DNA from: an uncultured Lentisphaeraceae bacterium
GTDB lineage: Bacteria; Verrucomicrobiota; Kiritimatiellia; RFP12; UBA1067
Direction of reading: 5' to 3'
DNA length: 64,000 nucleotides
Assembly (NCBI GenBank): GCA_964440985.1
Contig: CAYTWE010000001.1
Coordinates: 16,875-80,874, forward strand
How positions within the stretch are numbered: the stretch's first letter is position 1; every line of letters starts with the position of its first letter. A model generated the notes under the pieces. It was not told the origin of the DNA. It was given only the letters and a program-made list of their open reading frames with translations, and searched no databases. This document shows positions 10,896 to 63,048 of the stretch, piece by piece. A program made the translations under genes and the position numbers.

Positions 10896-10926
10896 TCGCC
10901 TAACCTTCCTTTGGTTAAAAAGACAG

Positions 10927-10961
10927 TGTGACATTATATATCAAAGTGTCACAAAAGTCAA
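10927..10961 (-). promoter_or_regulatory. Near-consensus sigma70 promoter for the OMP gene (TTGACT-N17-TATAAT) bracketed by a 7-bp inverted repeat TGTGACA-N13-TGTCACA
   Basis: Minus strand: TTGACT tttgtgacactttgata TATAAT gtcacactg. The -35 is at 10956-10961, the -10 at 10933-10938, and the inverted-repeat arms at 10947-10953 and 10927-10933. Confidence 0.55.
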
Positions 10962-34238: not shown

Positions 34239-36457
34239 CTTGCACCACCCTTCCTTTTAAGCGCCGCAATGCGCCGCTGCGCCTCACGCGAAGCCGGCAC
34301 GTCAGCATCCGCCACCCGTTCAAGCATTGCGATTGCGGCATTGGCGTTGCCCTCGGAATCATAATGATCCGCAAGCGCAAACGCTGCGCGGACGAAAAAC
34401 GTACGCGCCACTTCGCCGAACAGCATCCCCTTCGCACATCCTTCCGAATAGGCAAGCACCACATTTCTGTAATACTGCTCCATTGCCTTTTCCGTATTGC
34501 GAAGCTTCTCCATTGCGCGGCCGATCTTGAACGCAACTTCGATTTTCCGGTCGGGCGAAATGGCGTTGCCGTCCGGAAGCGCCCGGTACGCCGATATCGC
34601 CTCTGCGTAGCAGTTCGTGTCTCCGGCCCCCATGGCGTATAGCGCGTCCGCCTTCAGCACGGACGCCTTGACCGCGTTTGGACTGCCTGGCACCTGCGTT
34701 GCGGCGCGGTTGAACAGCTGCGATGCCTCCGCATATCTTCCAAGCTCCATCAAGGCCTCTCCCTGAACAAGCAGCGTTTCAGCAAAGAGCGTACGGTTCG
34801 TTCCGGATTCGCCGGCTGCCTTCGTCGCAAGCTCCACAGCCTTGGAATAGTCCATCAGCGCGGATGAGCATCGCGCCGCCCAAAGAAGCGCGGATGATGC
34901 ATTTGCGCCGCCGGGGCGGCGGGCCGCATACGTCTCGAAATACGAACGCGCATCCTCGTACTTCCCGTGGTTGTACTCGTATTTTGCGCACCACAGCATC
35001 AGATCGGTGCGCAGTTCCTCGCTTTTCGTGGATGCCATGAGGGATGTCGCCGTAGCCTTCGCATCAACGTCCATGCCCGCTCCGTACAGGCACAGAGCCT
35101 CAAGGAAGCGCATCTCGTCCGAAAGTTTCGGGTTGCGTTTCGCCACGGTTCCGAAATCTTTTGCCGCCTCTCCGAAACGGTATCCCCTGTAGCAGGCTCG
35201 TCCTCTTCCGAGATACGCCTCCGTGACATCCGCCTCGGCAAGACCGTTCGACGCTATCAGGCCGTCATACCGTTCAATCGCAATGCCGATGCGCCCTCTC
35301 CTTGCGTCGATTGACGCCAATCGCAACGCCGACTTCTCCCCCCATGGACCGCCCTTTTTCTCAAGTTCTCCATAGATTCTCTCGGCGCGTTCCATCTCGC
35401 CGGCGCGTTCAAGCGCATCAGCCTCCGAGAAGCGCATCTCTCCGGCATTCGCGCCGCCTAAGGCCGCCGCCCTTCCGTACGCCTCGGCGGCCTCCGCGTA
35501 ATGTCCATCCGCAAGGAACGACTCCGCCTGACCAAATGCCGCAGACGCCTTCATCTCCGCATTTGTGGCGGACTGCTCCGCACGCGAAAACGCCCCGACG
35601 GCTTCGGAATGTCGCCCAAGCATGAACAGCGCCCGCCCACGGCGGCTGAGAACTGCGAAATCAGTTGCGGCAGACGGGTCGATCTCAAGGTAGCGGCGGT
35701 ATTCGTCATCCGCACCGGCGGCGTCCCCGAGGGTCAGAAGTTTGTCTGCAAAGATCCGTGCGGACTGCACCGATACGCGCTCTCCAGGGTTCATGCGCAA
35801 GAGAGCGCGCACTCGCGCAACTCCAGTCGTACGCAGAGTCTCCTGCGCCATCTCCGCGAAACCAAGCAGATACCCTGCGCGAAGGCGTGATTCTCCGTTT
35901 AGACCATGTTCCGCAACCGGACGCAAAACCGCACACGCCTCCACGTTCTTTCCCGCCTCCGACAGCAGTTCGCCCTTCAGGAGCATCGCATCCTCTGCCG
36001 CCGGCCCGGTCCTGCCTTCAAGCGTCTCCGAAGAGATGAGCGCAAGCGCGTCGGAACGTCTGCCTGTCTCCGCAAGCATGTACGCCCTGAGGAACTTCAC
36101 CGGCAATGCGAGGTTCGAATCGGAGAAAGGCTCCTTCAATGTATCAATCGCCGCGGCAAAGTTACCCGCCCGCACCTGAGAACGCGCTCGCCAGAAACGG
36201 AAGCGTTCGCCGGTTTCATCCGTCCACAAGGAAAGTCGCCTGTCTATCTCCGCATCATTTCCGAGATGCGCCAAAGCCTCAAGCGACACAAGCCGAGCAT
36301 CAGTCCGCTCCGCCGCATTCCCGGCTGCGGCATCCGCCGCAGAAAGCGCCGTGCCCCACACTCCGTCCTTCAGCGCCTGCCGTGCGACATCAATGTCTCC
36401 GGCGGCAAAGACTGCCGCAGAGACAAGGCAAAGCACGGCTGCGACAGGCAAACTCAC
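34235..36457 (-). CDS. Periplasmic tetratricopeptide-repeat protein (740 aa)
   Basis: Signal peptide MSLPVAAVLCLVSAAVFAAG; long arrays of Ala/Leu/Tyr-rich TPR-like helices; 4-nt overlaps with era (upstream) and exbB-like (downstream). Confidence 0.7.
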   Translation of the reverse strand: MSLPVAAVLCLVSAAVFAAGDIDVARQALKDGVWGTALSAADAAAGNAAERTDARLVSLEALAHLGNDAEIDRRLSLWTDETGERFRFWRARSQVRAGNFAAAIDTLKEPFSDSNLALPVKFLRAYMLAETGRRSDALALISSETLEGRTGPAAEDAMLLKGELLSEAGKNVEACAVLRPVAEHGLNGESRLRAGYLLGFAEMAQETLRTTGVARVRALLRMNPGERVSVQSARIFADKLLTLGDAAGADDEYRRYLEIDPSAATDFAVLSRRGRALFMLGRHSEAVGAFSRAEQSATNAEMKASAAFGQAESFLADGHYAEAAEAYGRAAALGGANAGEMRFSEADALERAGEMERAERIYGELEKKGGPWGEKSALRLASIDARRGRIGIAIERYDGLIASNGLAEADVTEAYLGRGRACYRGYRFGEAAKDFGTVAKRNPKLSDEMRFLEALCLYGAGMDVDAKATATSLMASTKSEELRTDLMLWCAKYEYNHGKYEDARSYFETYAARRPGGANASSALLWAARCSSALMDYSKAVELATKAAGESGTNRTLFAETLLVQGEALMELGRYAEASQLFNRAATQVPGSPNAVKASVLKADALYAMGAGDTNCYAEAISAYRALPDGNAISPDRKIEVAFKIGRAMEKLRNTEKAMEQYYRNVVLAYSEGCAKGMLFGEVARTFFVRAAFALADHYDSEGNANAAIAMLERVADADVPASREAQRRIAALKRKGGAR

Positions 36458-37380
36458 ACCAACGCTCCCTTGTACCCCATTTCAGAAAGCAGCCTGTCGT
36501 TCTTCATCCAGTTCTGCTCAACCTTAACCCACAGCTCAAGGCGCACTTTCACGCCAAACATGTCTGAAAGCTCCGGTTCAGCGGCCTTTCGTGCGTACTT
36601 GAGCGTCCTGCCGCCTGATCCGATCACCATGCCCTTCTGCGACGGCTTGTTTACGTAGATCGCAACATTCACATCCCAAACGCCGTTTCGCTCAGAGATG
36701 TCCTTGACGGCCACACCAATCTCGTGCGGGATCTCCTGGAACAGCCGCGCAAGCAGCTTCTCTCGCACGACATCAGCAATGGCAAGCTTGCGCGGGTAGT
36801 CCGTCACTATGTCATCATCGAAAAGCGCCGGGCCTGGCTCAGCCATGCCATACAGCGCATCGGCGAGAGCGGCAAGCCCTTCTCCCGTCTTCGCCGAAAG
36901 TTTAATCCATGTCGGAGACACCCCGCAATCCCTGTGCGCCGCAGCCCAGCTGTCGTGATACATTGTCTCGAAGAACGGACTCTTGTCGCACTGATTCAGG
37001 ACGAAGATGCACTTTTCCGGCTTCTCGCGGGCTACACGCGCCATCCATCCTTCATCTTCCATCTGCGGCGCGTTTGATGCATCAAAAACGAGGCAAAGTA
37101 TGTCCGTACCCGCACTTGACGCCCTGGCCATGCCGTTAAGCAGACGTCCAAGCGGACCTTCCGCCTTGTGAAGTCCGGGAGTGTCGACAAGCACCAGCTG
37201 CCCACGCGGATCGGAGACAATGCCGCGCACCGTGTTGCGCGTCGTCTGCTCGACGGGTGACACGATCGACACCTTCTCTCCGACAAGGGCGTTGACAAGC
37301 GTCGATTTGCCGGCATTTGTCCTGCCGACGATGCCCACAATCGCCGCTTTTTTCTCACAGTTTTCTTCTCTGCTGCCCAT
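36454..37380 (-). CDS. era: GTPase Era
   Basis: AIVGIVGRTNAGKSTLVNAL (G1), DTPG (G3), NQCD (G4 variant) and a C-terminal KH domain; 308 aa. Confidence 0.92.
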   Translation of the reverse strand: MGSREENCEKKAAIVGIVGRTNAGKSTLVNALVGEKVSIVSPVEQTTRNTVRGIVSDPRGQLVLVDTPGLHKAEGPLGRLLNGMARASSAGTDILCLVFDASNAPQMEDEGWMARVAREKPEKCIFVLNQCDKSPFFETMYHDSWAAAHRDCGVSPTWIKLSAKTGEGLAALADALYGMAEPGPALFDDDIVTDYPRKLAIADVVREKLLARLFQEIPHEIGVAVKDISERNGVWDVNVAIYVNKPSQKGMVIGSGGRTLKYARKAAEPELSDMFGVKVRLELWVKVEQNWMKNDRLLSEMGYKGALV

Positions 37381-37485: not shown

Positions 37486-37743
37486 TTACGCCTGGGCGCC
37501 GTCACCATATCCCTTGGATGTGAGATACTCGATGACCTTGCCAACCGTGGTGAGCTTTTCAGCGTCCTCTTCGGGGATCGCCGCGCCGAATTCCTCTTCA
37601 AACGCCATAATGAGCTCGACGGAATCGAGGGAGTCTGCGCCGAGATCGTCGATGAACGACGCTTCGGACGTCACCTGCTCAGCGTTGACGCCGAGCTGAT
37701 CCACGATAATCTCTCTGACGCGATCTTCAAGTTTACCTGCCAT
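37486..37743 (-). CDS. acpP: Acyl carrier protein (housekeeping type)
   Basis: [78 protein letters not shown] phosphopantetheine site and close similarity to canonical AcpP. Start at ATG 37743 with AGGAG upstream. Confidence 0.9.
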
Positions 37744-37858
37744 AGTCTTTAAGTCTCCTTTTTGTTGGAACGCCTTGTAAGATACCAAATCCCAACCTTG
37801 AAATCAAGCGAAATTGTTGCTTGACAAGTGACCCGAAATTGGCGTACGCAGTTCCACA

Positions 37859-51437: not shown

Positions 51438-52397
51438 TCAGAATATCTGCGAAGCGAGGAACGGGGTGCGGTCGTACGGAGGCTGGACTTCGCCGACGTT
51501 CGTCACTACGGGGCTGTTCAGCTGATCATGCTTCGACCATGCCGCAACGAGCGACGCGACGCGTGAAAGCGCTTCGGCGGGCGGCTCGCCCGGCACAAGC
51601 GCCGTCGGACCGGGACAGTTCACGGTGTACACGACCTTTCCGACATCGCCGCACTTCTTCAGGATGGCGTTCTCGCGTGAATCGCGTCCAAGAATCACAC
51701 CCGTGCCGTCCGGGAAACGGAAGCGCCTGGCTATTACAAGAATGTCCACAAGCTTCCTCACGCCAAGCCCTTCATGCTCCAGCAGATCCCTGAGCCGGTG
51801 TCCGAAACCTTTCTCCGTGAGTTTGCATCCGCCAGCGGGCGACGGATAGTCCACAACGCCATACTTCTTGGCCAGCTCAAACTGCGGCTCGCGGCGACGT
51901 CCGGAAAGCGCAAGCAGTTTTGAACGGTCTATGCCGCCCTCAATCTCCGGGATCGTCGGATCAAGCAGCTGGGCGCTCAACGGACGCAGCAGCCGTCCCT
52001 GCAGTCCGCTCGCCTTGGCGACGACTCCGAGCGACTGCTTGTTCTGGCTCATCGGACGCTGGTTCAGCACCTCTCCAGTTGCTACGAAATCGTAGCCGAG
52101 CGACGACATCATCTCGCCGGCCCTGCGTATCATCGTCGCATGGCAGTCTATGCACGGGTTCATCGCGCCGCCGAAGCCGTGCGGCGGATTCTCGATCAGA
52201 CGGCACTCATCGTCTGTGAAGTCGATCACGTGCAGCGGCACGCCAAGCGCCGCCGCCGCCCGCCGTGCCGCAGAGGACGAAAAGAACGGCGTCTCGAAGC
52301 ACACGCACTCCACCACCGCCCCAGCATCCTGAAGCACCTTCACCGCGAGCTGGCTGTCCAGCCCTCCACTAAGCAGGCTCAACCCTTTTGCGCCCAT
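51438..52397 (-). CDS. PP-loop superfamily ATP pyrophosphatase (ThiI/MnmA/QueC-like sulfur or amido transferase); function unresolved
   Basis: LSLLSGGLDSQLAVKVL (SGGxDS PP-loop) and NPCIDCH Cys pair; 320 aa from the internal Met (MGAKGLSLLSGG). Confidence 0.55.
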   Translation of the reverse strand: MGAKGLSLLSGGLDSQLAVKVLQDAGAVVECVCFETPFFSSSAARRAAAALGVPLHVIDFTDDECRLIENPPHGFGGAMNPCIDCHATMIRRAGEMMSSLGYDFVATGEVLNQRPMSQNKQSLGVVAKASGLQGRLLRPLSAQLLDPTIPEIEGGIDRSKLLALSGRRREPQFELAKKYGVVDYPSPAGGCKLTEKGFGHRLRDLLEHEGLGVRKLVDILVIARRFRFPDGTGVILGRDSRENAILKKCGDVGKVVYTVNCPGPTALVPGEPPAEALSRVASLVAAWSKHDQLNSPVVTNVGEVQPPYDRTPFLASQIF

Positions 52398-52457
52398 CCT
52401 TGCACCGCCTCCCTTGTCCGTAAAAAACAATTCAAGAAAACATCTCCACTGCGCCGC

Positions 52458-53120
52458 TCACGCATACCACGCGCCAAGACGCCCGGCGATCGGCGATTCT
52501 GCGAGTCTCCGGACAAGCCCGTCCGCAAGCTCATCCGCTCCGTCAGGAGCCTCGCCATCCGCCATATCATCGCGCACCTGAAACAGGATGCCGAAATCAA
52601 GCCCATACCGGCGATACGGCGCGGGATCGGCGCCGGCCGCAAGTGCGCCGAGCGCCGCCGAAAGCGCGAACGGCTCACCGGTCTTGCGCTCGCACACCGA
52701 AAGGTACTCCTCACGGGGACGGCTCGCCACCGTTCCGCAGATGTCATCGCCCTGCCCCTCGCAGAGGGCAATGTGCGAACGGACTGTCTCGCCAATCATT
52801 GCCGCCGCATTGCCGAAGCCAGATTCGGCGATCAGCCCGTAGCCGTGCGCAACGAGCCAGTCGCCCGCCGCTATCGCGAGCGCAACGCCATGCTCCTTCC
52901 ACACCGTCGGCTTTCCGTAGCGCTCCTCGCTGCAGTCCTGGATGTCATCGTGTATGAGCGACGCCTTGTGGAAGCATTCCACCGCCTCGCACAGGCTGTC
53001 AATTCCTGCGGACCGGATGCGTCCGCCCGACGCAAGATCGAACGCCGCCTTGCAGAGACGCGGCCGCAATCTCTTGCCGCCGCGTCCGCAGAACCCCATC
53101 GCTATCGAGGCGACACTCAC
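52458..53120 (-). CDS. Short polyprenyl diphosphate synthase-like protein (trans-IPPS fold), atypically compact
   Basis: GGKRLRP..LIHDDIQD (first DDxxD) and FQVRDDMAD (second DDxxD). Only 220 aa, against about 300 for IspA-type enzymes. The ORF is bounded by an upstream stop, so the N-terminal helix is missing. Confidence 0.5.
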   Translation of the reverse strand: MSVASIAMGFCGRGGKRLRPRLCKAAFDLASGGRIRSAGIDSLCEAVECFHKASLIHDDIQDCSEERYGKPTVWKEHGVALAIAAGDWLVAHGYGLIAESGFGNAAAMIGETVRSHIALCEGQGDDICGTVASRPREEYLSVCERKTGEPFALSAALGALAAGADPAPYRRYGLDFGILFQVRDDMADGEAPDGADELADGLVRRLAESPIAGRLGAWYA

Positions 53121-53770
53121 TTTCCGAAAACTTCAATCTCGATGTAGTTGTTCACCGGCTCGGAGGAGGAGCCGTTTGAATAGCACCTCACATAGCGGGC
53201 CTTCGTGAGCTTGCCGTCGATCGGGCGGCCATCGTTGCGCTCACGGTACTCCTTGTCCGACCCTTTGCCGAGCTTCGACGAATTGTCGTGGTCGTTGTTG
53301 AAGATCGTCGTGACGTCCTTCGAGAAGCTCTCGTCGTTGGAAAGCTGCACAATCACGTCCTTGTATGCACGGTCGTCACCCTGATCATGCCAGACGCACA
53401 CGGCGGACACCGTCTTCTCCGCGCCAAGGTCAAGCTGCACCCACTGGACACCGCCGGGGAGCTGAAGCATACAGGTCGCGTCAGGGGTCTTGTCGCCATC
53501 AACGACATACTCGTTGTCGCCCGTCACAGACTCTTCGGAAGTGGTCACCTTGGTATCTTCCGTCGTGAGTTTCTTGTCATAGCCCACCGGAACCATGATT
53601 GGAGCGCGGAGCTTTCCGGGGCCGGGATCCGGCTCAAGGTTGTCGCTCTTTATCTCCTTGGGCGTACCGCTGGAATGGGGTGGCGGCAGCTCGAACTTGA
53701 TGGCGACCTTCTCGCCGGCAAACAGACACGCCGTGGCGGACACCAACGCAAACGCAACAAGTCTTTTCAT
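53117..53770 (-). CDS. Secreted (possibly lipo-)protein with a C-terminal F5/8 type C (discoidin / galactose-binding-like) domain
   Basis: Signal MKRLVAFALVSATAC (lipobox-like ATAC). C-terminal ..ARYVRCYSNGSSSEPVNNYIEIEVFGK matches the discoidin-domain ending pattern. Start at ATG 53770 with AGGGAAG upstream. Confidence 0.5.
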   Translation of the reverse strand: MKRLVAFALVSATACLFAGEKVAIKFELPPPHSSGTPKEIKSDNLEPDPGPGKLRAPIMVPVGYDKKLTTEDTKVTTSEESVTGDNEYVVDGDKTPDATCMLQLPGGVQWVQLDLGAEKTVSAVCVWHDQGDDRAYKDVIVQLSNDESFSKDVTTIFNNDHDNSSKLGKGSDKEYRERNDGRPIDGKLTKARYVRCYSNGSSSEPVNNYIEIEVFGK

Positions 53771-53862
53771 CAACATCTTCCCTTTCTTGATACGGCGGAT
53801 TGTACCAAAACCGCGCACACCAATCAACGGCGGCATTCAAATCTCAATGGACAAACCGACAC

Positions 53863-53891
53863 TTGCATGTTTGGCGGTGAAATGATATCAT
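53863..53891 (+). promoter_or_regulatory. Sigma70-like promoter for rpmE (TTGCAT-N17-TATCAT)
   Basis: acTTGCATgtttggcggtgaaatgaTATCATacg; 32 nt upstream of the rpmE ATG; RBS GGAGGAGAAAG. Confidence 0.5.
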
Positions 53892-53923
53892 ACGCGAACA
53901 TTTTTTAAAGGCAGAGGAGAAAG

Positions 53924-54136
53924 ATGAAAGCAGGAATCCATCCTACCTACGAAGACGCGACGATCACGTGCGCGTGCGGCAATGTCATAAAGACGCGCTC
54001 CACGAAGAAGGAGATGCAGGTCAACACCTGCTCCGCGTGCCATCCGTACTTCACCGGACAGAAGACGATCGTCGATACCGAAGGTCGCGTCGATACGTTC
54101 AAGAAGCGTTACGCGAAGTTCCGCAAGGACGCGTAA
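53924..54136 (+). CDS. rpmE: 50S ribosomal protein L31
   Basis: MKAGIHPTYEDATITCACGNVIKTRSTKKEMQVNTCSACHPYFTGQ..; the zinc-ribbon Cys x4 is present. Confidence 0.92.
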   Translation: MKAGIHPTYEDATITCACGNVIKTRSTKKEMQVNTCSACHPYFTGQKTIVDTEGRVDTFKKRYAKFRKDA

Positions 54137-54184
54137 GCGACACTTGCGCACCAACGGTTCCTCCCGGCAATCCGGGCGATGGTG

Positions 54185-54221
54185 GCATCCGGGCGGTTCC
54201 GTCCGGATGCTTCGGTTTTTT
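54185..54221 (+). terminator. Rho-independent terminator/attenuator after rpmE
   Basis: GCATCCGG gcggttccgt CCGGATGC followed by TTCGGTTTTTT, ending 4 nt before the prfA ATG. Confidence 0.6.
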
Positions 54222-54225
54222 GTCA

Positions 54226-55314
54226 ATGGTCGAGAAACAGCAGATAGCGAAGGTGCTTGCACGGCTTTCCGAGACAGAGGCCGCGATGGGCGACCCTGCG
54301 GTACTGGCCGACGCCAAGCGCTACCGCGAAACAGTGCGCGAGCATACCGCCCTCAAAAGGCTTGAGGCGGCGGCCAAACGCTATTTCAAGCTGCTTGACG
54401 ACATTGACGGCGCCAAGGCAATGCTGACGGAGGCCTCGATAGACCCTGAGCTTGCGGCGGAAGCCGAACATGAGATAGAAAGCCTATCCGCCGGCATCGC
54501 AGACGCTGAGCGCGACGTGCTTGCCGGACTTCTCCCCCCTGACCCGCTTGAGGCGCGGAACGCCTGTTTCGAGATTCGCGCCGGCACCGGCGGCGAGGAG
54601 GCCGCACTTTTTGCCGGCGACCTGTTCCGCATGTATTCGCGCTACTGCGAAGCAAAGGGCTGGCACATTCGCGTGATGTCGGCGAACCAGACATCCCTCG
54701 ACGGATACAAGGAGGTAATCTTCACGGTCGAAGGCGATGGAGCGTACGGACTTTTCCGCTTCGAGAGCGGTGGGCACCGCGTTCAGCGCGTCCCCGCGAC
54801 AGAGGCGCAGGGACGCATCCACACAAGCGCCGCCACAGTTGTCGTGTTTCCGGAGGCGGATGAAGAGGACGAACTGGAAATCCCGGAGAAGGACATCCGG
54901 ATAGACCTCTTCTGCGCCGGCGGCGCCGGTGGGCAGCACGTCAACAAAACGGAATCCGCCGTGCGCATGACGCATCTTCCCACCGGACTTGTCGCGCAAT
55001 GTCAGGACGAGCGTTCGCAGATACGCAACCGCGAAAAGTGCCTCGCGACGCTCAAGGCGCGGATTCTCGACTTCAAGCGACGCGAAGAGGAGGCGAAGCT
55101 CGGAGCATCGCGTCTTTCCCTGCGCGGCTCGGGAGACCGCTCCGAACGCATCAGGACGTACAACTTCCCGCAGAACCGCCTTACAGACCACCGCGTAGAC
55201 CTTACGCTGTATTCCCTTGACCGCATCGTCGAGGGCGCTCTCGATCCAATCCTCTCGGCCCTGCGCGAAAAAGACCTTTCGGAACGGATCGCCGCCGGGC
55301 TTGGCCGCATCTGA
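54226..55314 (+). CDS. prfA: Peptide chain release factor 1
   Basis: PxT tripeptide region (RVQRVPATEAQGRIHTSAATVVV), GGQ motif (AGGAGGQHVNKTESAVRMTHLPTG), 362 aa. The track ORF from 53968 is an upstream extension that overlaps rpmE. Confidence 0.95.
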   Translation: MVEKQQIAKVLARLSETEAAMGDPAVLADAKRYRETVREHTALKRLEAAAKRYFKLLDDIDGAKAMLTEASIDPELAAEAEHEIESLSAGIADAERDVLAGLLPPDPLEARNACFEIRAGTGGEEAALFAGDLFRMYSRYCEAKGWHIRVMSANQTSLDGYKEVIFTVEGDGAYGLFRFESGGHRVQRVPATEAQGRIHTSAATVVVFPEADEEDELEIPEKDIRIDLFCAGGAGGQHVNKTESAVRMTHLPTGLVAQCQDERSQIRNREKCLATLKARILDFKRREEEAKLGASRLSLRGSGDRSERIRTYNFPQNRLTDHRVDLTLYSLDRIVEGALDPILSALREKDLSERIAAGLGRI

Positions 55315-55336
55315 TGCAGGCATCCATGCGCATTTG

Positions 55337-56092
55337 ATGGAGAATCCCGCAATGCTGAGCGAAGATGCCGAGGAAACGCTTTTCGATGTGAAGGGTCTGC
55401 GTGTGCGCTACGGCACGATGGAGGCCGTGAAAGGCGTAAGCTTCCACCTTTCACGCAGGGAGACTCTTGGAATAGTCGGCGAATCGGGAAGCGGAAAATC
55501 GACGATCGCGAAAGCACTTGTCGGAATCGAGAAGCCGTCTTCCGGCTCAATCACATGCCGCGCAAAGTCTGTGCAGATGGTTTTTCAGGACGCAGTCGGT
55601 TCGCTGAATCCGCGCATGACAGTGCGGCAGACCCTCCAGGAGGTGCTGAAGATCAAGCGAAACGGAAGGCGCACCGCCCCTGAACTGCTTGACCTGGTTG
55701 GGCTTAGCGCGGCCGTGCTGGAGCAATATCCGCGTGAGATGTCCGGCGGACAGTGCCAGCGCGTGAGCATAGCGCGTGCGCTGGCCTGCGAACCGGAAGT
55801 GCTTATCGCCGACGAACCGGTAAGCGCACTTGACGTGAGCGTACAGGCCCGCATCCTCAACCTGCTGCGGGATCTGCGCCGGAATCTTGGGCTATCCATA
55901 CTGCTCATCGCCCACGATCTCGCCGTCGTGAAAAACGTATGCGACCGCGTATGCGTGATGCAAAACGGAACGTTTGTTGATGCCGGAACATCCGACGAGG
56001 TTTTCAACCATCCGAAGAGCGAATACACGCGACATCTCCTCGACGCCGTGCCGGATGTTGCCCGCGCACTTGCCGGCCGCCGTCCCGCGTGA
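55337..56092 (+). CDS. ABC transporter ATP-binding protein (DppF/OppF-like), with no adjacent permease or binding protein
   Basis: Walker A GESGSGKST, signature LSGGQCQRVSIARAL, Walker B LIADEPVSALD, H-loop IAHDL; first in-frame ATG after the prfA stop. Confidence 0.8.
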   Translation: MENPAMLSEDAEETLFDVKGLRVRYGTMEAVKGVSFHLSRRETLGIVGESGSGKSTIAKALVGIEKPSSGSITCRAKSVQMVFQDAVGSLNPRMTVRQTLQEVLKIKRNGRRTAPELLDLVGLSAAVLEQYPREMSGGQCQRVSIARALACEPEVLIADEPVSALDVSVQARILNLLRDLRRNLGLSILLIAHDLAVVKNVCDRVCVMQNGTFVDAGTSDEVFNHPKSEYTRHLLDAVPDVARALAGRRPA

Positions 56093-56101
56093 CTTCCGTT
56101 T

Positions 56102-56110
56102 TGGTATAAT
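56102..56110 (+). promoter_or_regulatory. Extended -10 TGGTATAAT, 7 nt upstream of the ACP ATG (leaderless geometry)
   Basis: cgttTTGGTATAATgcgccacATG; no SD. Confidence 0.4.
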
Positions 56111-56117
56111 GCGCCAC

Positions 56118-56372
56118 ATGAAAAAAGACGAGTTGTTGAAGCAGATCAGGGATACGCTTGCCGCCGAGTTCGGCTGCGACGCGGCCAAGGTTGTGCCGGA
56201 GGCACGTTTCTTCGAGGATCTTGACCTCGATTCGATCGATGCGGTGGATCTTATCGTGCGTCTCAGGAACGAACATCAGATTGACGTGTCGCCGGACGAT
56301 TTCAAGTCCATCCGCACGATCGGCGATCTCATTGACGTTCTCGAGCGGCTTACGGAAGGCTCAGGCAAGTAG
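56118..56372 (+). CDS. Acyl carrier protein, divergent second copy
   Basis: MKKDELLKQIRDTLAAEFGCDAAKVVPEARFFEDLDLDSIDAVDLIVRLRNEHQIDV.. The DSID serine site lies in a 4-helix ACP frame and is distinct from acpP at 37486-37743. A GCATCCG-cagcgc-CGGATGC hairpin follows the stop codon. Confidence 0.8.
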   Translation: MKKDELLKQIRDTLAAEFGCDAAKVVPEARFFEDLDLDSIDAVDLIVRLRNEHQIDVSPDDFKSIRTIGDLIDVLERLTEGSGK

Positions 56373-56410
56373 ATAACCGAAAGGCATCCGCAGCGCCGGA
56401 TGCATCCGAC

Positions 56411-56758
56411 ATGAATTGCCGAGAGCCAGAACTGCACTCGTGGAACGCCACGGCGGACTCCCTTGCGGCGGAAATGACCTTTCCCCCTGACGGCGAGTGG
56501 TTTGCCGGACACTTCCCCGGATTCCCTGTGCTTCCGGGCGTGGCGCAGCTCTTCTTCACGCGACGTTTCGCCCAGCGCGCATTTCCGGATTTCCCTGACG
56601 CCGCATCGTACCGGCGAATCAAGTTCAAACGGCTGGTGCGTCCAGGCGAACGGGTGCGCCTTGAAGTCCTGAGACGCGGCGCCGGCTCCTTCACGTTCAA
56701 CATGTCCGTGGACGGGGAGATTGCGTCAAGCGGCTCGGTGGAGGGCCTCTCGAAATGA
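56411..56758 (+). CDS. Small hotdog-fold dehydratase subunit (FabZ/FabA-like His motif)
   Basis: GHFPGFPVLPGV (FabZ catalytic-His motif) but no LEAMAQ-type Glu block; 115 aa; ATGA overlap with the next gene. Confidence 0.6.
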   Translation: MNCREPELHSWNATADSLAAEMTFPPDGEWFAGHFPGFPVLPGVAQLFFTRRFAQRAFPDFPDAASYRRIKFKRLVRPGERVRLEVLRRGAGSFTFNMSVDGEIASSGSVEGLSK

Positions 56759-57231
56759 ACGGCATCGCAGGTTCACTCCTTGAACTGCTGCCGCACCGTC
56801 CGCCGATGACGATGCTGTCGGATGTGGTTTCGGTTGACGGACAGGGAAGAGCCGTTGCCGTGGCGGACGTTTCGGAAGATTCAATATTCCACGACTCCGC
56901 CCTTGGCGGCGTACCGGCCTGCGCCGCAGTCGAATACATGGCGCAGACCGTCGCCCTCATTGTCGGCGACAGGCACCGCAGAAGCGGCGAAACGCCTAAA
57001 GTCGGCTTCCTTCTCGGAACAAGAAAACTCGACGTGTCCATTCCTTCATTCAAAAGCGGAACGCGATACGAGGTGACGGCAAACTGCATCTATTCGGATG
57101 ACGAGTTCGCGTCGTTCGACTGCACGATAACCGATCCAGACGGGGCAACTGTCGCATCCGCAACGCTTACGGCGTTTCAGCCGCCGGGCGATCCCGAAGA
57201 GTTTGCCGAGAAAATGAAGGAGCGTGGATGA
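56755..57231 (+). CDS. FabZ-like 3-hydroxyacyl-ACP dehydratase (hotdog fold)
   Basis: N-terminal LLELLPHRPPMTMLSDVV (compare FabZ LPHRYPFLLVD); ..IFHDSALGGVPACAAVEYMAQTVALI (His plus the Glu block); 158 aa. Confidence 0.7.
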   Translation: MNGIAGSLLELLPHRPPMTMLSDVVSVDGQGRAVAVADVSEDSIFHDSALGGVPACAAVEYMAQTVALIVGDRHRRSGETPKVGFLLGTRKLDVSIPSFKSGTRYEVTANCIYSDDEFASFDCTITDPDGATVASATLTAFQPPGDPEEFAEKMKERG

Positions 57232-57279
57232 TCCACATTTCGTACGCGGTTCACGTTCCGCGCATGGAGTTCAATCAAC

Positions 57280-57963
57280 ATGGGAAATGAAAAGAAAGTC
57301 ATCGTGACCGGTTCGAGCCGCGGCATAGGCAAGGCCATTGCCGAAACACTTTCAAAGGCCGGCTACAGCGTCGTCACACATTCCGTAAGATCGGGCGGCA
57401 CCGATCTCGTGTTCGACGTCTCCGACCGCGCAGCAGCAGCAGCGGCGCTCGGCAAGTGGATAGAGGAGAACGGCGCACCGTACGGCGTTGTGCTGAACGC
57501 CGGCATCGCGTGTGACAATGCGTTTCCCGCGATGGAGGATGACGAATGGGATCGCGTCGTCAGGACGGATCTCGACGGATTCTACAACGTCCTCAAGCCA
57601 CTCGTCCTTCCCATGGTGCAGACCCGCGCCCCAGGAAGGATTGTGGTCATCTCGTCCCTCTCCGGCGTGATCGGGAACCGGGGCCAGACCAACTACGCCG
57701 CCGCCAAGGCCGGCGTTATCGGGGCGGCGAAATCGCTGGCGATTGAGCTTGGGAGACGAAACATAACGGTGAACTGCGTCGCTCCGGGCGTCATTGAAAC
57801 TGAAATGACGGAAGCGATTCCCGAAAACGAAGTCAAGAGCGTGATACCGATGCGCCGCTTCGGACGCCCTGAAGAGGTGGCCGCCGCCGTGGAGTTCCTG
57901 CTTTCTGATGGCGCATCGTACATCACACGCCAGGTGCTGCAGGTGAATGGAGGCATGATTTGA
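57280..57963 (+). CDS. 3-oxoacyl-ACP reductase (SDR family, FabG-like)
   Basis: VIVTGSSRGIGKAIAETL (TGxxxGIG), NAG, catalytic S..YAAAKAG (YxxxK); 227 aa. Confidence 0.85.
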   Translation: MGNEKKVIVTGSSRGIGKAIAETLSKAGYSVVTHSVRSGGTDLVFDVSDRAAAAAALGKWIEENGAPYGVVLNAGIACDNAFPAMEDDEWDRVVRTDLDGFYNVLKPLVLPMVQTRAPGRIVVISSLSGVIGNRGQTNYAAAKAGVIGAAKSLAIELGRRNITVNCVAPGVIETEMTEAIPENEVKSVIPMRRFGRPEEVAAAVEFLLSDGASYITRQVLQVNGGMI

Positions 57964-59189
57964 AGCGCAGGGTGGCAATAGTCGGCGAGGGCATCGTAAG
58001 TTCACTCGGACATTCGCCAGATGAGGCGTATTCAAGGCTGAAGACTCTCCGCAACTGCGTGAAGGTGTCGGACGACCTTGCTTCATACAAGGGGCTTCAC
58101 ACGAAGCTGTGGGCGCCGTGCGGATATGTCCGCCCGGCGGAATACACACGCAAGACCATCCGCACGATGAGTCCGGTATCCGAAATGGCGCTCTTTGCGA
58201 CTGAACGCGCATTGGCCGATGCCGGGCTGCTCGAAGACGCCGCCACACTAAAAGGCGGACGGCTCGGCGTGGCGTACGGCTCATGCTCCGGCGGCGTAGA
58301 GGCGAATCTCGACTTCGCAAGCATTCTCGTGAACCGCGAAGTCAAGAACGTCACAAGCTCCACCTACATCAAGATGATGCCGCAGACGACGGCGGTGAAC
58401 CTTTCCGTACATTTCGGAACGACGGGGCGGCTGCTCCCGACGGGGACGGCCTGCACGTCGGGATCGCTCGCCATCGGTGAGGCGTATGAGGCAATCGCCT
58501 ACGACAGGCAGGACATCATGATAGCCGGCGGGGCAGAGGAGTTCTCCGTCACGCAGGTTGCGGTGTTCGACACCCTCTTCTCCGCGTCATGCAAAAACGA
58601 CAAGCCGGAGAACACCCCGTGCGCGTTCGATGTGTCGCGCTCTGGACTTGTCATAGGCGACGGTGCGGCGACGCTCATTCTCGAAGAGATGGAACACGCA
58701 AAGGCGCGTGGCGCAAGAATCATCGCCGAAGTCGTGGGATTCGGACTGAACACCGACGGCCGCCACGTCACCCAGCCAAATGCGGACACCATGTCAAACG
58801 CACTTTCGCTGGCGCTTGAGGATGCCGCCCTGCCGCCGTCCGCAATCGGGTACGTGAACGCCCACGGTACGGCCACAGTGCTCGGCGACATCGCGGAGGG
58901 CACAGCCACCCAACGCGTGTTCGGAAGCGGCAATGTGCCGGTGTCGACGATAAAGAACTACACCGGGCATACCCTCGGCGCATGCGGCGCGATAGAGGCG
59001 ATAATGACCGTGGAGATGATGCGCAACGGATGGTTCGCGCCAAATCTCAACCTTCACGAACCCGACCCGCGATGCGGTGAAAACGACTTCATAATGGGCG
59101 ATGGACGGATGGTTGACGCCGAATACGCGATGTCGGACAACTTTGCGTTCGGCGGCGTGAACACCTCATTGATTTTCAGGCGGATGTGA
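57960..59189 (+). CDS. Beta-ketoacyl-ACP synthase I/II (FabB/FabF-type KAS)
   Basis: Active-site Cys GTACTSGS, His NAHGTATVLGD, His/Lys block NYTGHTLGACGA. TTG start at 57960 overlapping the fabG-like stop. 409 aa. Confidence 0.88.
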   Translation: MKRRVAIVGEGIVSSLGHSPDEAYSRLKTLRNCVKVSDDLASYKGLHTKLWAPCGYVRPAEYTRKTIRTMSPVSEMALFATERALADAGLLEDAATLKGGRLGVAYGSCSGGVEANLDFASILVNREVKNVTSSTYIKMMPQTTAVNLSVHFGTTGRLLPTGTACTSGSLAIGEAYEAIAYDRQDIMIAGGAEEFSVTQVAVFDTLFSASCKNDKPENTPCAFDVSRSGLVIGDGAATLILEEMEHAKARGARIIAEVVGFGLNTDGRHVTQPNADTMSNALSLALEDAALPPSAIGYVNAHGTATVLGDIAEGTATQRVFGSGNVPVSTIKNYTGHTLGACGAIEAIMTVEMMRNGWFAPNLNLHEPDPRCGENDFIMGDGRMVDAEYAMSDNFAFGGVNTSLIFRRM

Positions 59190-59248
59190 AACGCCATGCG
59201 GCGTCGCCCGCATTGATGGCGACAGACAGCAAAGAAAGGACATAACCT

Positions 59249-60643
59249 ATGACGATAATGCAGATGACCGCAATTGCGGCGGTGATGGCGGCGACGGTCG
59301 CATCGGGTCGGCCAGTGCCGCGTCCGGCACTCGTGGAACGCATGGAGAAAGGGCCGAACATCATCGGCATCGTGCATTGGGGACTTAACACCTACTCCGA
59401 CCGCGAATGGGGATACGGGGATGAAGATCCGAAGACACTTGCGCCCTCCGCATTTGACGCAGATCAGATAGTCTCCGCGTGCAAGGATGGAGGAATCGGC
59501 GGGCTTGTCATCGTCGCAAAGCACCATGACGGCTTCTGCCTGTGGCCGACGAAGACGACCGGACACAACATCTCGAAGTCTTCTTTCCGCAACGGCAAGG
59601 GAGACTACGTGAAGGAGATGGAGCAGGCCTGCCGCAGGGCCGGGATCCGCTTCGGCGTGTACGTCTCACCATGGGACCGCAATGCACCGGACTACGCCTC
59701 TCAGTCCTATGTTGAGAAGTATCATGCACAGATCAAGGAACTTCTGAGCGGGGACTATGGCGAGGTGTTCGAAATGTGGTTCGATGGCGCAAACGGCGGA
59801 AACGGCTGGTACGGAGGCGCAAAGGAAGTCCGCAGGATCCCGAACGGCTACTACCGGTTTGACGAGGTGTTCGCATTCGTCCGCGCACTGCAGCCCAAGG
59901 TGTGCATCTTCGCAGGCGAGTATGACGCATCCGATTTCCGCTGGCCGGGCAACGAACGCGGAATGCTCGACCCTGAATCACGTGCGACGATCGAAACCGT
60001 GGGCGGATACGCAAACGGAAAGTACGGCAACCCGAACTACAAGGGGCAGATCAACACCGGCTCTCCTGACGGCACGTTCTTCCGCGTGTGCGAGGCGGAC
60101 TTCCCGATGCGCCCCGGCTGGTTCTACCATGCCAAGGACAAAGGCCGCACCAAGAACGCCGCCTTCCTGATGCAACGCTACCTGACCACCGTCGGCAACG
60201 GCGGCACGATGAACTTGGGCATTGCCCCCAACCGCGAAGGACGACTTGACGACGAGGACGTGAACGCCCTGCGCGGATTCAGCGCACTCCGCAAGGCGTA
60301 CTTCTCCCGTCCGGTCAAGGATGGCAAGGCGAATCTCGCCGTTCTGCGCGAGGACATCTCGAAGGGCGAACAGATAAGCTCATGGAAGATCGTCGCGGGG
60401 GATTCGGTTCTCGCATCGGGGAAGGTCGTAGGCTGTGAACGCATCCGCGCACTTGCCGCCGCGACCGACGTGGCCCGAATCTCCCTCAAGACCGAGGGTG
60501 GCGACGTAAAGTCGGCTGAATACTACAACGTAGATCCGGAACTCGTCGAGCTTGTCGCGAACGCGACGGCAGAGGGCGGAGAGACGGATACGGCCAAGTG
60601 GATGACCGGCGCCGCAAAGGAGCCTGCCAGTTCACGGAAGTGA
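59249..60643 (+). CDS. Secreted alpha-L-fucosidase (GH29)
   Basis: VIVAKHHDGFCLWPT (GH29 nucleophile-region motif), signal-like N-terminus, RBS AAAGAAAGGA; 464 aa. Confidence 0.8.
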   Translation: MTIMQMTAIAAVMAATVASGRPVPRPALVERMEKGPNIIGIVHWGLNTYSDREWGYGDEDPKTLAPSAFDADQIVSACKDGGIGGLVIVAKHHDGFCLWPTKTTGHNISKSSFRNGKGDYVKEMEQACRRAGIRFGVYVSPWDRNAPDYASQSYVEKYHAQIKELLSGDYGEVFEMWFDGANGGNGWYGGAKEVRRIPNGYYRFDEVFAFVRALQPKVCIFAGEYDASDFRWPGNERGMLDPESRATIETVGGYANGKYGNPNYKGQINTGSPDGTFFRVCEADFPMRPGWFYHAKDKGRTKNAAFLMQRYLTTVGNGGTMNLGIAPNREGRLDDEDVNALRGFSALRKAYFSRPVKDGKANLAVLREDISKGEQISSWKIVAGDSVLASGKVVGCERIRALAAATDVARISLKTEGGDVKSAEYYNVDPELVELVANATAEGGETDTAKWMTGAAKEPASSRK

Positions 60644-60656
60644 CCGGCTGAGCGAT

Positions 60657-60693
60657 GCGGGGATCGCGCATATTCCTGATTCGCGATCCCCGC
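60657..60693. promoter_or_regulatory. Perfect 12-bp inverted repeat hairpin (GCGGGGATCGCG-N13-CGCGATCCCCGC) immediately after the fucosidase stop codon, with no U-tract
   Basis: Seen directly in sequence. Could be a terminator-like stabiliser or a protein-binding palindrome. Confidence 0.4.
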
Positions 60694-60855
60694 GCAACCG
60701 TCACCTTCCCGCATCGGTACGAACACGGCGTACCGCAGCCTTCCATCGAACAGCCGAACAGCAAGGCGGCAACACAGAGGGCAATCAATGCCGCTGATGC
60801 CATGCACCTTTGCGATGAGTGTTCTCATGCCGCGAATTATCTGAAATCCAGATTG

Positions 60856-60888
60856 CGGCAACATTGTCCCCACATTGCCATTTGGCAA
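60856..60888 (+). repeat. Copy A of a nested-dyad motif: GCGGCAACATTG tcccca CATTGCCATTTGGCAA
   Basis: Contains TTGCCA-tt-TGGCAA (a perfect 6-2-6 dyad) and an upstream GGCAA-ca-TTGTC half-dyad. 16/16 identity to copy B over CATTGCCATTTGGCAA. Confidence 0.6.
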
Positions 60889-60904
60889 GCAGGACAACAT
60901 CACG

Positions 60905-60936
60905 AAAAACGCATCTGGCAAGCGGCAGCTTGCGCG
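60905..60936 (-). terminator. Putative terminator after the HAD hydrolase gene
   Basis: Minus strand: GCAAGC tgcc GCTTGC, then 8 nt, then TTTTT. Weak because of the long stem-to-U spacing. Confidence 0.35.
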
Positions 60937-60944
60937 ACACGGCG

Positions 60945-61595
60945 TCACTCTTCCGGCTTGAGGTAGCGCAGAAGTTCGTCAAAGCGGCGAAGCTTGACGG
61001 TGCAGCGGCTTTCGTTCAGCCGCCCGAAACCGAACGAGCAGAACGCAGTCTTGATTCCGGCGGCACACCCGCTCTCCATGTCCGTCCAGTTGTCGCCCAC
61101 CATCCAGTCGTGAGCCGACAGTCGATGCCCGCGCATACGCGCTGCGCACTCGCGGAGCGGAAGCCCCGACGGTTTCATCTCGGCGCAATCACCGCCGGCA
61201 ACGACGGCATCGCCGAAATACTGCAGGATCCCGTAATGAGACAGCAGGTCTCTTGCGGCGAAATTTGGCTTGTTGGTGTTTACGCCCATGAGCCAGCCGC
61301 GATCCGCAAGTTCCGCAAGCGTCCGGCGGACGCCCGGATAAAGCACCGTCTCGTCTGTCATGTGGGCGCGGTAGTTCGCGCTGAACATTGGCCAAAGTTC
61401 ATCAAACCTTCCGGCGATTTCGGGGATTGCGTTTTCAAGAAGATGCCTTGCACCGCACCCTACGAAACCGATGACGGACTCCTGCGGCAGTGTACACAGT
61501 CCAAGATCCCTGCGTGTGTAGTTCACGGCATTCGCAAGATCAGCCCGCGAATCGAAAAGCGTACCGTCCATGTCGAAAAATACGGCGTTCATCAT
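60945..61595 (-). CDS. HAD-superfamily hydrolase (phosphoglycolate-phosphatase-like, subfamily IA)
   Basis: Motif I FFDMDGTLFDS, motif III/IV ..MVGDNWTDMESGCAAGI. Start at ATG 61595 (MMNAVFF); the track start is a TTG at 61610. No clear SD. Confidence 0.7.
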   Translation of the reverse strand: MMNAVFFDMDGTLFDSRADLANAVNYTRRDLGLCTLPQESVIGFVGCGARHLLENAIPEIAGRFDELWPMFSANYRAHMTDETVLYPGVRRTLAELADRGWLMGVNTNKPNFAARDLLSHYGILQYFGDAVVAGGDCAEMKPSGLPLRECAARMRGHRLSAHDWMVGDNWTDMESGCAAGIKTAFCSFGFGRLNESRCTVKLRRFDELLRYLKPEE

Positions 61596-61786
61596 GTTGC
61601 TGCGAGGCAAACCAGCCGCCTGAATCGGCGACCCATCTGCCTTTTGCTCCTTGTTTCTGTCTGCTGCTCCACAAACCAGCCACGTTCGCCGCTGCGCACG
61701 GTGCGGTCAGTGAACGCGGATTATAGCAGAAACGCCAAACCGTCCGCAAACCGCCTCCGGCATACGGCATCTGTCGGCGACATACG

Positions 61787-62169: not shown

Positions 62170-62253
62170 GCGCACACATCGGCATTGAAACGGCCTGCTC
62201 AGGGTGTTCCGACAGGACGCAGAAGCAGGTTAGGTTCAGCGGAGGAGCGGACA

Positions 62254-63048
62254 ATGGGAAAAAGGATAGGATTGGCTTTAGGCGGCGGCGGTGCGCGTGG
62301 GCTTGCGCATCTCGGCGTGTATGAACGCTTGACCGAACTGGGCATACCGCTGCATTGCATAGCCGGAACGTCCATAGGCGCAATCGCCGGTGCAATCATC
62401 GCCTCTGGGAACGTCGGAAAGGCGCTTGACTGGTGCAACGCACCGGACTGGAAGAAATTTCCGGGGCTGATGCTTGAAACGCATTTCACGGCGAAAGCCA
62501 TAACATCCGGAAGAAGGATCGAGCGGCTTCTTGCCGAACTTATCGTGGTTCAAAGTTTTGACGGCCTGAACCTTCCATTTGGTGCTGTGGCGACAGATCT
62601 GAACACTGGTGACGAGGTGGTGATGCGCGATGGGGATCTGCTTTCGGCGGTCCGCGCCTCCATATCCATTCCGGGTGTGTTTCTCCCGGTGGAGCGCAAC
62701 GGACGTGTGCTGATCGACGGACAGATAGTGAATCCCGTACCGGTGTCGGTGTGTCGTGCGATGGGGGCTGACATCGTCATTGCAGTGGACATCAATCCTC
62801 CGAATCCGCCGTCTGGGGCCAGGCCTCTCGACAGGCTCAGCATAATAGACATCATAAGCGGTACGTTCACCATCCTGAACTGCGAACTTACGAAGCGTGT
62901 GCTTTCAGAGAATCCGCCCGACGCTCTGATACGTCCGGCCGTAGGCGGCGTGATGGCACTCGACTTCCGCCATGCCGAGCGTCTTGTCGAGATCGGGCGG
63001 CAGTCGGTTGACGACAGGATCGCGGCTGAACTGCTTGCCCTGCTCTAA
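62254..63048 (+). CDS. Patatin-like phospholipase (RssA/YchK type)
   Basis: GLALGGGGARGLAHLGV (oxyanion G-G-G-x-R/K-G), GTSIGAIAG (GxSxG nucleophile), DGGxxxNxP-like IDGQIVNPVP (Asp dyad partner). Start at ATG 62254 with GGAGGAG upstream. Confidence 0.85.
   Translation: MGKRIGLALGGGGARGLAHLGVYERLTELGIPLHCIAGTSIGAIAGAIIASGNVGKALDWCNAPDWKKFPGLMLETHFTAKAITSGRRIERLLAELIVVQSFDGLNLPFGAVATDLNTGDEVVMRDGDLLSAVRASISIPGVFLPVERNGRVLIDGQIVNPVPVSVCRAMGADIVIAVDINPPNPPSGARPLDRLSIIDIISGTFTILNCELTKRVLSENPPDALIRPAVGGVMALDFRHAERLVEIGRQSVDDRIAAELLALL

Follow-up and report, generated by a model that had tools for sequence, protein, structure and literature searches.

We analyzed a 64-kb stretch of DNA (hereafter the window) from an uncultured Lentisphaeraceae bacterium (contig CAYTWE010000001.1), in which the open reading frame (ORF) list and family scans place five packed plus-strand genes at 56118-59189, directly after the gene of a Dpp/Opp-type ATP-binding cassette (ABC) ATPase. 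The five genes encode an acyl carrier protein (ACP), two hotdog-fold proteins, a 3-ketoacyl-ACP reductase (ketoreductase, KR) and a ketosynthase (KS), and they resemble the ApeF, ApeI, ApeP, ApeQ and ApeR components of aryl-polyene (ape) biosynthesis (Table 1). The ORFs and motifs agree with an earlier note on this DNA, which had described five tightly packed genes between prfA and a fucosidase gene, and the intact Cys-His-His triad that it ascribed to the KS is present. The same note had counted overlapping genes at three of the four junctions. Overlaps occur at two, ApeI/ApeP (ATGA, 56755-56758) and KR/KS (TTGA, 57960-57963), and the other two junctions are spacers of 38 nt (ACP-ApeI) and 48 nt (ApeP-KR). 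The canonical housekeeping acpP is a separate gene next to era, as had been noted, and lies 18 kb from the five-gene cluster. The ape gene families are already known; what is new is the compact five-gene form reduced from them.

Table 1. Genes of the five-gene cluster, its flanks and the housekeeping comparator (positions in the window)
Feature	Position	Strand	Family models, motifs and remarks
prfA	54226-55314	+	Upstream flank; probably the first gene of a transcription unit with the ABC ATPase gene and the cluster
Dpp/Opp-type ABC ATPase	55337-56092	+	PF00005
ApeF-type ACP, 84 aa	56118-56372	+	NF003757, PF00550; LDLDSIDAVDL
ApeI-like hotdog protein, 115 aa	56411-56758	+	PF22818; GHFPGFPVLPGV; Phe at the FabZ glutamate position
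ApeP-like hotdog protein, 158 aa	56755-57231	+	PF22817; LPHRPPM, VEYMAQT
ApeQ-type 3-ketoacyl-ACP reductase (short-chain dehydrogenase/reductase), 227 aa	57280-57963	+	NF004200; TGSSRGIG, YAAAK
ApeR-type homodimeric ketosynthase, 409 aa, TTG start	57960-59189	+	NF006587; TACTSGS, NAHGTAT, GHTLGACG
GH29 fucosidase	59249-60643		Downstream flank
Canonical housekeeping acpP	37486-37788	-	Comparator outside the module; DSLD motif; adjoins era
era	36454-37380		Neighbour of canonical acpP

The genes were assigned to families by NCBIfam and Pfam profile scores relative to the curated cut-offs, together with sequence matches to entries of the Protein Data Bank (PDB). The ACP scores 87.9 bits against NF003757 (cut-off 65) and also matches PF00550, while it falls under the cut-off of the AcpP model TIGR00517 (52.6 versus 70.45). 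Its second-best PDB match (E = 1.4e-12) is 9L1V, the ApeF of Acinetobacter baumannii (PMC12624758). The ApeF hallmark residues A43, F63 and K64 are preserved in the window ACP as A42, F62 and K63, and it is just 31% identical to the window's housekeeping AcpP. In the full ape cluster L029, described below, the second ACP matches NF003757 like the window ACP, and the first ACP matches NF006617. By these profile and residue matches, the window ACP is a dedicated ApeF-type carrier and corresponds to the ACP that comes second in ape clusters.

Analysis of the KR gave 323.9 bits against NF004200 (cut-off 273), with scores below the cut-offs of the FabG2 model TIGR01831 (303.6 versus 338.85) and the FabG model TIGR01830 (238.9 versus 297.75). 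Its best PDB matches are 7CAW and 6NRP (264 bits), compared with about 167 bits for Escherichia coli FabG; 6NRP and the A. baumannii ApeQ whose structure was solved in PMC8041823 are the same protein. The window KR shares 74-87% identity with the KRs of full Kiritimatiellia ape clusters. It is about 15 residues shorter than A. baumannii ApeQ, with the gap after the second beta-strand; among the clusters compared (L029, L032 and L016), KRs of 224-228 aa are found in full Kiritimatiellia clusters too, and a 240-aa form in other clusters. The KS, the only one in the window, scores 569.7 bits against NF006587 (cut-off 470) and 326.9 bits against the FabF model TIGR03150, below its cut-off of 493.75. 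Its PDB matches are 4EWG (474 bits) and 7F27 (428 bits), with FabF at 241 bits; 7F27 is, judged by residue numbering, an ApeR-type KS of A. baumannii (PMC8358021). These family matches are far past chance (E = 2.9e-171 for the KS and 6e-97 for the KR). Taken together with the two hotdog proteins, the profile comparisons showed each of the five genes to be orthologous, at the level of sequence, to its ape counterpart.

The two hotdog proteins were assigned in the same way. The ApeI-like protein scores 36.7 bits against PF22818 (cut-off 28.5) and the ApeP-like protein 67.4 bits against PF22817 (cut-off 27), while the pair reaches only about 30 bits against the FabZ model TIGR01750 (cut-off 155.15). 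Among solved structures, the ApeI-like protein is matched by 3esi_A (E = 7e-12) and 6qsr_A (E = 2e-9), and the best PDB match of the ApeP-like protein is 6qsr_B (E = 5.7e-12); the 6QSR structure consists of one ApeI-like and one ApeP-like chain. ApeI and ApeP have been described as a heterodimer with a single active site (PMC8041823). Alignment of 12 ApeI-like relatives, including forms fused to an ABC ATPase or an AMP ligase, revealed that the motif GHFP..P.LPGV.QL is invariant and that the glutamate at the FabZ position is missing. In the aligned ApeP-like relatives, EYMAQT is invariant and no histidine is conserved, with His46 of the window protein replaced by Phe, Tyr or Val elsewhere. Natural ApeI::ApeP fusions also occur, in P0083 (261 aa) and as a 298-aa gene in L092. 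These observations support the prediction that the window pair comprises complementary halves of a heterodimer, in which the catalytic histidine would come from ApeI and the glutamate from ApeP. The histidine and glutamate blocks are distributed over the ApeI-like and ApeP-like chains of 6QSR as in the window, although the similarity of the window proteins to this structure is modest (41-49 bits) and their heterodimer is a prediction. In relatives, ApeI forms part of a fusion protein with an ABC ATPase, ApeP or an AMP ligase, whereas the ApeI of the window is free-standing.

That the two proteins might be complementary halves had been suggested in the earlier note, and the invariant His and Glu blocks, the two chains of 6QSR and the ApeI::ApeP fusions bear it out. 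Whether the small hotdog proteins are dehydratases or thioesterases is answered by the matches to solved ape structures; Pfam assigns them as ApeI-like and ApeP-like, and weakly as FabZ, in favor of the dehydratase type. The proposed likeness to HadAB is reduced to an analogy, since a MaoC-type domain was not found in a Pfam scan (E <= 0.01), which returned ApeI-like, ApeP-like and FabA models only. The mycobacterial HadAB and HadBC enzymes are built from two hotdog subunits, only one of which supplies the catalytic residues of each active site. They share the concept of two hotdog subunits with the window pair but belong to the MaoC-like hydratase/dehydratase family.

The family assignments bear directly on whether this locus is a rearranged housekeeping type II fatty acid synthase (FAS-II), consisting of fabZ, fabG, fabF and an ACP gene. 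FabZ, FabG, FabF and AcpP have the same folds and reaction types as the window proteins, FabD is probably shared, and no other KS, KR or FabZ-like gene lies in the 64-kb window or beside acpP. However, the FabF, FabZ, FabG (TIGR01830) and AcpP models remain below their cut-offs and the ape-type models exceed theirs, a separate canonical acpP exists, the window dehydratase is predicted to be heterodimeric, and the genes are orthologous to members of full ape clusters. In addition, the KS, KR and ACP genes are missing from this locus in close relatives. We therefore regard a housekeeping FAS-II as highly improbable, and the view of a specialised module distinct from the housekeeping acpP stands. 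Pfam annotation of the neighbours of acpP found no adjacent fab genes. BLAST of the 64 kb with queries from the window and from full clusters detected no further KS, KR, ACP, hotdog or ape genes, and neither did Pfam annotation of ten larger ORFs in 1-22 kb and of roughly 27-64 kb. A phmmer search of the compared loci for FabZ, with an E. coli FabZ query, gave weak ApeI/ApeP matches only.

To relate the five genes to known ape clusters, an ApeP alignment was scanned against one genome per species, and the 80 best of 251 matches were taken as loci and mapped by local BLAST. Most of these loci, from other Kiritimatiellia and Proteobacteria, show a classic layout, in which one or more ACP genes and ApeI are followed about 5 kb later by ApeO-ApeP-KR-ApeR. 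The full cluster L029 (UBA1727) begins with an ApeE-type ACP (NF006617), an ApeF-type ACP (NF003757), a small protein and an AMP ligase::ApeI fusion; continues with a LolA-like protein, a resistance-nodulation-division (RND)-like protein, a small ORF and an ApeO-type KS; and ends with ApeP, KR, an ApeR-type KS (NF006587), an unknown protein, a lysophospholipid acyltransferase (LPLAT) and a GT2 glycosyltransferase. The best model for its ApeO-type KS is NF006618, at 356 bits, below the 407 cut-off. L029 follows the gene order of E. coli apeE-R and adds two attachment enzymes to it. Comparison of the two layouts revealed that the window retains the order of L029 but has lost the ApeE-type ACP, the small protein together with the ligase domain, all genes from the LolA-like one through ApeO, and whatever follows ApeR. 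The full Kiritimatiellia clusters L029, L030 and L038 have the same relative gene order as the window, with identities to the window proteins of 74-79% for the KR, 73-77% for the KS, 48-51% for ApeP, 50-56% for ApeI and 56-58% for the ACP. They have about 14 genes, among them those for the ligase, export, ApeO, LPLAT and GT2, whereas the clade of the window has five.

In a neighbour-joining (NJ) tree of the ApeR-type KS, the compact clusters (the window, L007-L009, L011, L012, L092 and L094) form one clade nested among larger Kiritimatiellia clusters; L010 has the compact layout too, on a contig that ends within the KR gene. A locus nearly identical to that of the window occurs in CAZMNN01, and GCA_963617745.1 shows its architecture as well. 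Because the compact clade is nested among Kiritimatiellia clusters with more ape genes, the compact form is derived by loss. The comparisons thus showed, as far as gene content, order and phylogeny tell, that the five-gene set is a deletion derivative of a full ape cluster in gut or rumen Kiritimatiellia. The earlier statement that the gene set matches no known system does not hold, with every gene an ape orthologue and the cluster a reduced full ape cluster. AcpXL clusters comprise two FabF-type KSs, an alcohol dehydrogenase and the LpxXL acyltransferase, and the NodFE set only NodF and NodE; the window cluster has one KS, no acyltransferase and no alcohol dehydrogenase. Of the rhizobial nod models, NodG alone gave a match, to the KR, and its 180 bits fall short of the cut-off of 436. 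As a side observation, metagenome-assembled genome (MAG) records labelled Clostridium, Limosilactobacillus, Faecalibacterium, Alistipes, Gemmiger or Lachnospira carry Kiritimatiellia-type loci (L009, L010, L014, L015, L020, L021 and L048). L009 and L010 share synteny with the window, their prfA being 94% identical, and the taxonomic labels of these 'cleanbin' records look wrong.

All five families of the window are present in the ape biosynthetic gene clusters (BGCs) of E. coli CFT073, Xenorhabdus doucetiae and A. baumannii (apeA-R), where ApeP-ApeQ-ApeR stand in the same order and likewise overlap or are closely spaced. The chemistry is the same, that of a highly reducing hybrid of type II polyketide synthase (PKS) and fatty acid synthase (FAS) with no enoyl reductase and a borrowed FabD (PMC8253772, PMC8041823, PMC12624758). 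The core set of ape clusters has been given as apeO/R, apeE/F, apeC, apeI/P, apeQ and apeM (bioRxiv 10.1101/2020.12.19.423268). Unlike these BGCs, the window cluster lies within a probable prfA operon and follows the gene of a conserved ABC ATPase, and by BLAST and Pfam the window is without the ApeB methyltransferase, the ApeK thioesterase and the ApeG/L/N export genes. BLAST with L029 queries found no match in the 64 kb to the ApeE-type starter ACP or the ApeH aryl ligase, and the ApeI of the window has no ligase domain. There was likewise no match to the L029 ApeO, with one KS only in the window; no query was run for the chain-length factor (CLF) ApeC. Genes for an ApeM-like RND protein, a LolA-like protein, an LPLAT or a GT2 enzyme (ApeD/ApeJ attachment) also had no match in the window by BLAST with L029 queries and Pfam annotation of the neighbours.

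These results lead us to propose that the reduced cluster encodes a stand-alone module of KS, KR and dehydratase without an enoyl reductase, and that this module would build a short acyl chain, either conjugated or 3-hydroxy, with no aryl starter. We put the probability of this reading at slightly above one half, about 0.55. Malonate would be loaded onto the ACP by the housekeeping FabD, as in other ape systems (PMC12624758), and the KS would condense malonyl-ACP with a primer, probably an acetyl group or a FAS-II acyl chain. With the aryl-adenylating ApeH domain and the ApeE starter ACP lost, the primer is unlikely to be an aryl acid. Each round would be completed by the KR and the dehydratase, and since no enoyl reductase is encoded, iteration may give a short conjugated polyenoyl or 3-hydroxy-polyenoyl thioester, to be off-loaded by enzymes encoded elsewhere. 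Such a pathway would resemble the branch of aryl-polyene lipids that consists of a non-aryl conjugated fatty acyl (cFA) chain and is proposed to be built on ApeF. In vitro, ApeR together with the KR and dehydratase makes short polyenes with three to four double bonds without ApeO-ApeC (PMC8358021). E. coli deletions of apeF and apeR stay pigmented, that of apeF only partially (PMC8253772), and a second, non-aryl conjugated acyl chain (26:5, 3-OH) in aryl-polyene lipids has been proposed to be built on ApeF (bioRxiv 10.1101/2020.12.19.423268). That exactly ApeF, ApeI, ApeP, ApeQ and ApeR are retained favors a stand-alone, aryl-independent polyenoyl or hydroxyacyl module. A comparable logic is seen in alterochromide-type lipid tails (discussed in PMC8358021), where one ApeR/FabB-like KS acts with a KR and a dehydratase without a KS-CLF pair and short polyenes are expected; those systems have an aryl starter-loading enzyme and feed a nonribosomal peptide synthetase (NRPS), neither of which is found in the window.

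Several points weigh against this proposal. The window KS preserves the equivalents of F118, Y135 and F202 of A. baumannii ApeR, the residues proposed to stack with the aryl group (PMC8358021), and their retention gives no sign of a changed KS substrate. ApeF has been described as a shallow-cavity malonyl shuttle and not a chain carrier (PMC12624758), and the window ACP keeps the residues of this type. No acyltransferase or thioesterase for off-loading lies near the cluster. The persistence of ApeI-ApeP under selection after loss of the ACP, KS and KR, described below, points to a dehydratase role outside the module. Finally, the missing ape genes, which are often dispersed in this class, may lie elsewhere in the genome.

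This last point defines a split pathway, in which ordinary aryl-polyene lipids are made, ApeE, ApeH, ApeO and the export, LPLAT and GT2 genes stand at other loci, and the window provides the shared KR, dehydratase and ApeR/ApeF. The scattering of ape genes in Kiritimatiellia makes it a serious rival. ApeP-KR-KS-u175-LPLAT arrays occur with no ACP, ligase or ApeO gene within 10 kb (L022, L027 and L051), half-clusters can be divergent (L032), and ApeP can lie 4 kb from KR-KS (L025). Orphan ApeP genes are seen in L023, L026, L028 (beside rnfA) and L036 (beside guaA), and L043 and L056 have ApeO-ApeP pairs without a further ape gene within 10 kb. The retained aryl-stacking residues of the window KS fit this reading as well. 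Nevertheless, the window ApeI is a stand-alone protein of 115 aa that has lost the AMP-ligase domain of the full clusters, and the ACP and ApeI genes have been brought directly beside ApeP. Moreover, no second ApeP locus from any compact-cluster genome is among the 80 best of the 251 matches, and the sister lineages show ongoing loss, not relocation. Overall, we consider a split pathway unlikely; if the missing genes do lie elsewhere in the genome, the locus would be an ordinary split ape cluster of little further interest.

To examine the selection acting on the compact cluster, pairwise ratios of nonsynonymous to synonymous substitution rates (dN/dS) were calculated from pairs with unsaturated dS, namely the window versus L007 and L008, L009 and L010 among themselves, with which more distant pairs agree. 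In these pairs the ACP shows ratios of 0.02-0.22, ApeI 0.05-0.14, ApeP 0.11-0.24, the KR about 0.04, the KS 0.05-0.09 and the ABC ATPase 0.05-0.14. When all comparisons are included, ApeI ranges over 0.05-0.28 and ApeP over 0.10-0.26; for the genes as a set the range is 0.04-0.25. Purifying selection acts on every gene and the catalytic motifs are intact, and the cluster is not a decaying pseudogene array. The five-gene module is present in the window and eight or nine other assemblies.

Comparison with related loci revealed a gradient of reduction within the lineage of the window. L013 contains ABC::ApeI-ApeP-KR without an ACP or KS, L087 contains ABC::ApeI-ApeP only, without ACP, KR or KS, and L093 has the L31-prfA-ABC context with no ape genes. 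Since L087 lacks the KS, KR and ACP and L093 lacks all ape genes in the same context, the module is accessory and not an essential FAS-II. Between two fusion-bearing lineages without an ACP, the dN/dS values of the hotdog pair, which assume a single fusion event, are 0.28 for ApeI and 0.19 for ApeP. This suggests that the dehydratase pair is useful even without a dedicated ACP, KS and KR.

The gradient raises the alternative that the locus is a remnant in cross-talk with FAS-II, in which ApeI:ApeP would be the component under selection and, with the KR and KS of the window, would act on AcpP-bound intermediates, and no polyene would be made. An example would be auxiliary elongation or dehydration for membrane or lipopolysaccharide (LPS) fatty acids, with the enoyl products reduced by the FAS-II enoyl reductase. 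The series from L013 through L087 to L093, the purifying selection on the hotdog pair in ACP-less lineages, the malonyl-shuttle type of the sole retained ACP and the position of the genes in a housekeeping operon after prfA are all consistent with it. In vitro, however, A. baumannii FabG cannot substitute for ApeQ, and the ape and FAS systems are believed to be kept from cross-talk in part by their dedicated ACPs (PMC8041823). The five-gene set is also intact in at least nine assemblies, with ApeP identities of 62-94%, and the dN/dS comparison depends on the single fusion assumed. We find such a remnant doubtful, and the stand-alone, aryl-independent module remains the reading that we prefer.

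The ABC ATPase upstream of the cluster belongs to the Dpp/Opp/Nik family by NCBIfam, Pfam and PDB matches, with most of the C-terminal extension of the family missing. It had been reported to lack a permease, and indeed none was called by Pfam annotation between 46.7 kb and the end of the window. The identity of the ATPase to more than 100 protein clusters is 77-86%. Its gene stands 5' of the compact cluster in L007-L010, L012, L092 and L094, and it also occurs after prfA without ape genes (L093) and after a Lyase_1 gene (L090/L091). In L088/L089 (7246-10712), an orthologue with 81% identity lies between a MacB/LolD-like ATPase and an LptF-like permease; it adjoins lpxA and is near lpxB and genes of TolC-like and HlyD-like proteins, an envelope-lipid context. 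An assignment as LptB, prompted by this context, was rejected, as NCBIfam and the PDB place the protein firmly in the Dpp/Opp/Nik family. A dedicated product exporter is also unlikely, with the gene occurring without ape genes in L093, L088/L089 and L090/L091. The ATPase is probably a conserved operon neighbour of housekeeping type, not an ape component or a dedicated transporter. In-frame ABC::ApeI fusions, in which the intervening ACP gene is deleted, were found in several independent assemblies, namely L013 (1818-3026), L087 (8001-9074), P0128, P0133, P0137, P0139 and P0146; they leave open a functional link of the ABC ATPase to ApeI.

Analysis of the intergenic regions identified a strong terminator-like hairpin (54184-54211; 12 pairs and a T-run) directly after rpmE and just before prfA. 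No comparable site was found from prfA through the end of the KS gene, where the gaps are 22-48 nt. With a strong hairpin only before prfA and none until the KS end, a single transcription unit from prfA to the KS gene is plausible. The L31-prfA-ABC gene order is kept in L007-L010, L087 and L092-L094. The ACP-ApeI spacer contains a perfect 7-bp hairpin at 56384-56403 (GCATCCG...CGGATGC), present only in the window and its nearest relative L007; it was rejected as a conserved element, being missing from other compact clusters. An Rfam scan of 52000-61000 (E <= 0.1) detected no regulatory RNA. Elsewhere in the window, the minus strand encodes at 9648-10934 an outer-membrane channel of the FadL/TodX type, a family for hydrophobic compounds or long-chain fatty acids (PF03349, E = 1e-44). 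Exogenous fatty acids may thus be taken up by the organism, the fab genes of which are not seen in this window. A patatin-like phospholipase (62185-63048, plus strand) and a HAD hydrolase (60945-61610, minus strand) are encoded 2-3 kb 3' of the cluster; their link to it is doubtful, since neither is found downstream of the cluster in L008, L092 and L094.

A wider reading, which we regard as speculative and less probable than either the split pathway or the FAS-II remnant, is that the gut Kiritimatiellia clade has taken over the ape machinery for a primary role in envelope lipids. ApeI:ApeP would then be the selected core, joined by ApeR, ApeQ and ApeF and acting with or on the repeatedly fused, permease-less Dpp-type ABC ATPase, and the five genes would constitute a stand-alone synthase of non-aryl conjugated or 3-hydroxy fatty acids. 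If this is true, ApeF and ApeR would represent the cFA branch of aryl-polyene lipid biosynthesis. The minimised cluster of ApeF, ApeI, ApeP, ApeQ and ApeR, maintained by purifying selection, offers a ready minimal system for the product of this subset, and it bears on the roles of ApeR and ApeF and on the source of the second, non-aryl polyene chain in aryl-polyene lipids. The reduction series and the recurrent ABC::ApeI and ApeI::ApeP fusions provide comparative evidence for the heterodimer, and the series hints that the dehydratase pair is used outside pigment synthesis in anaerobic gut bacteria.

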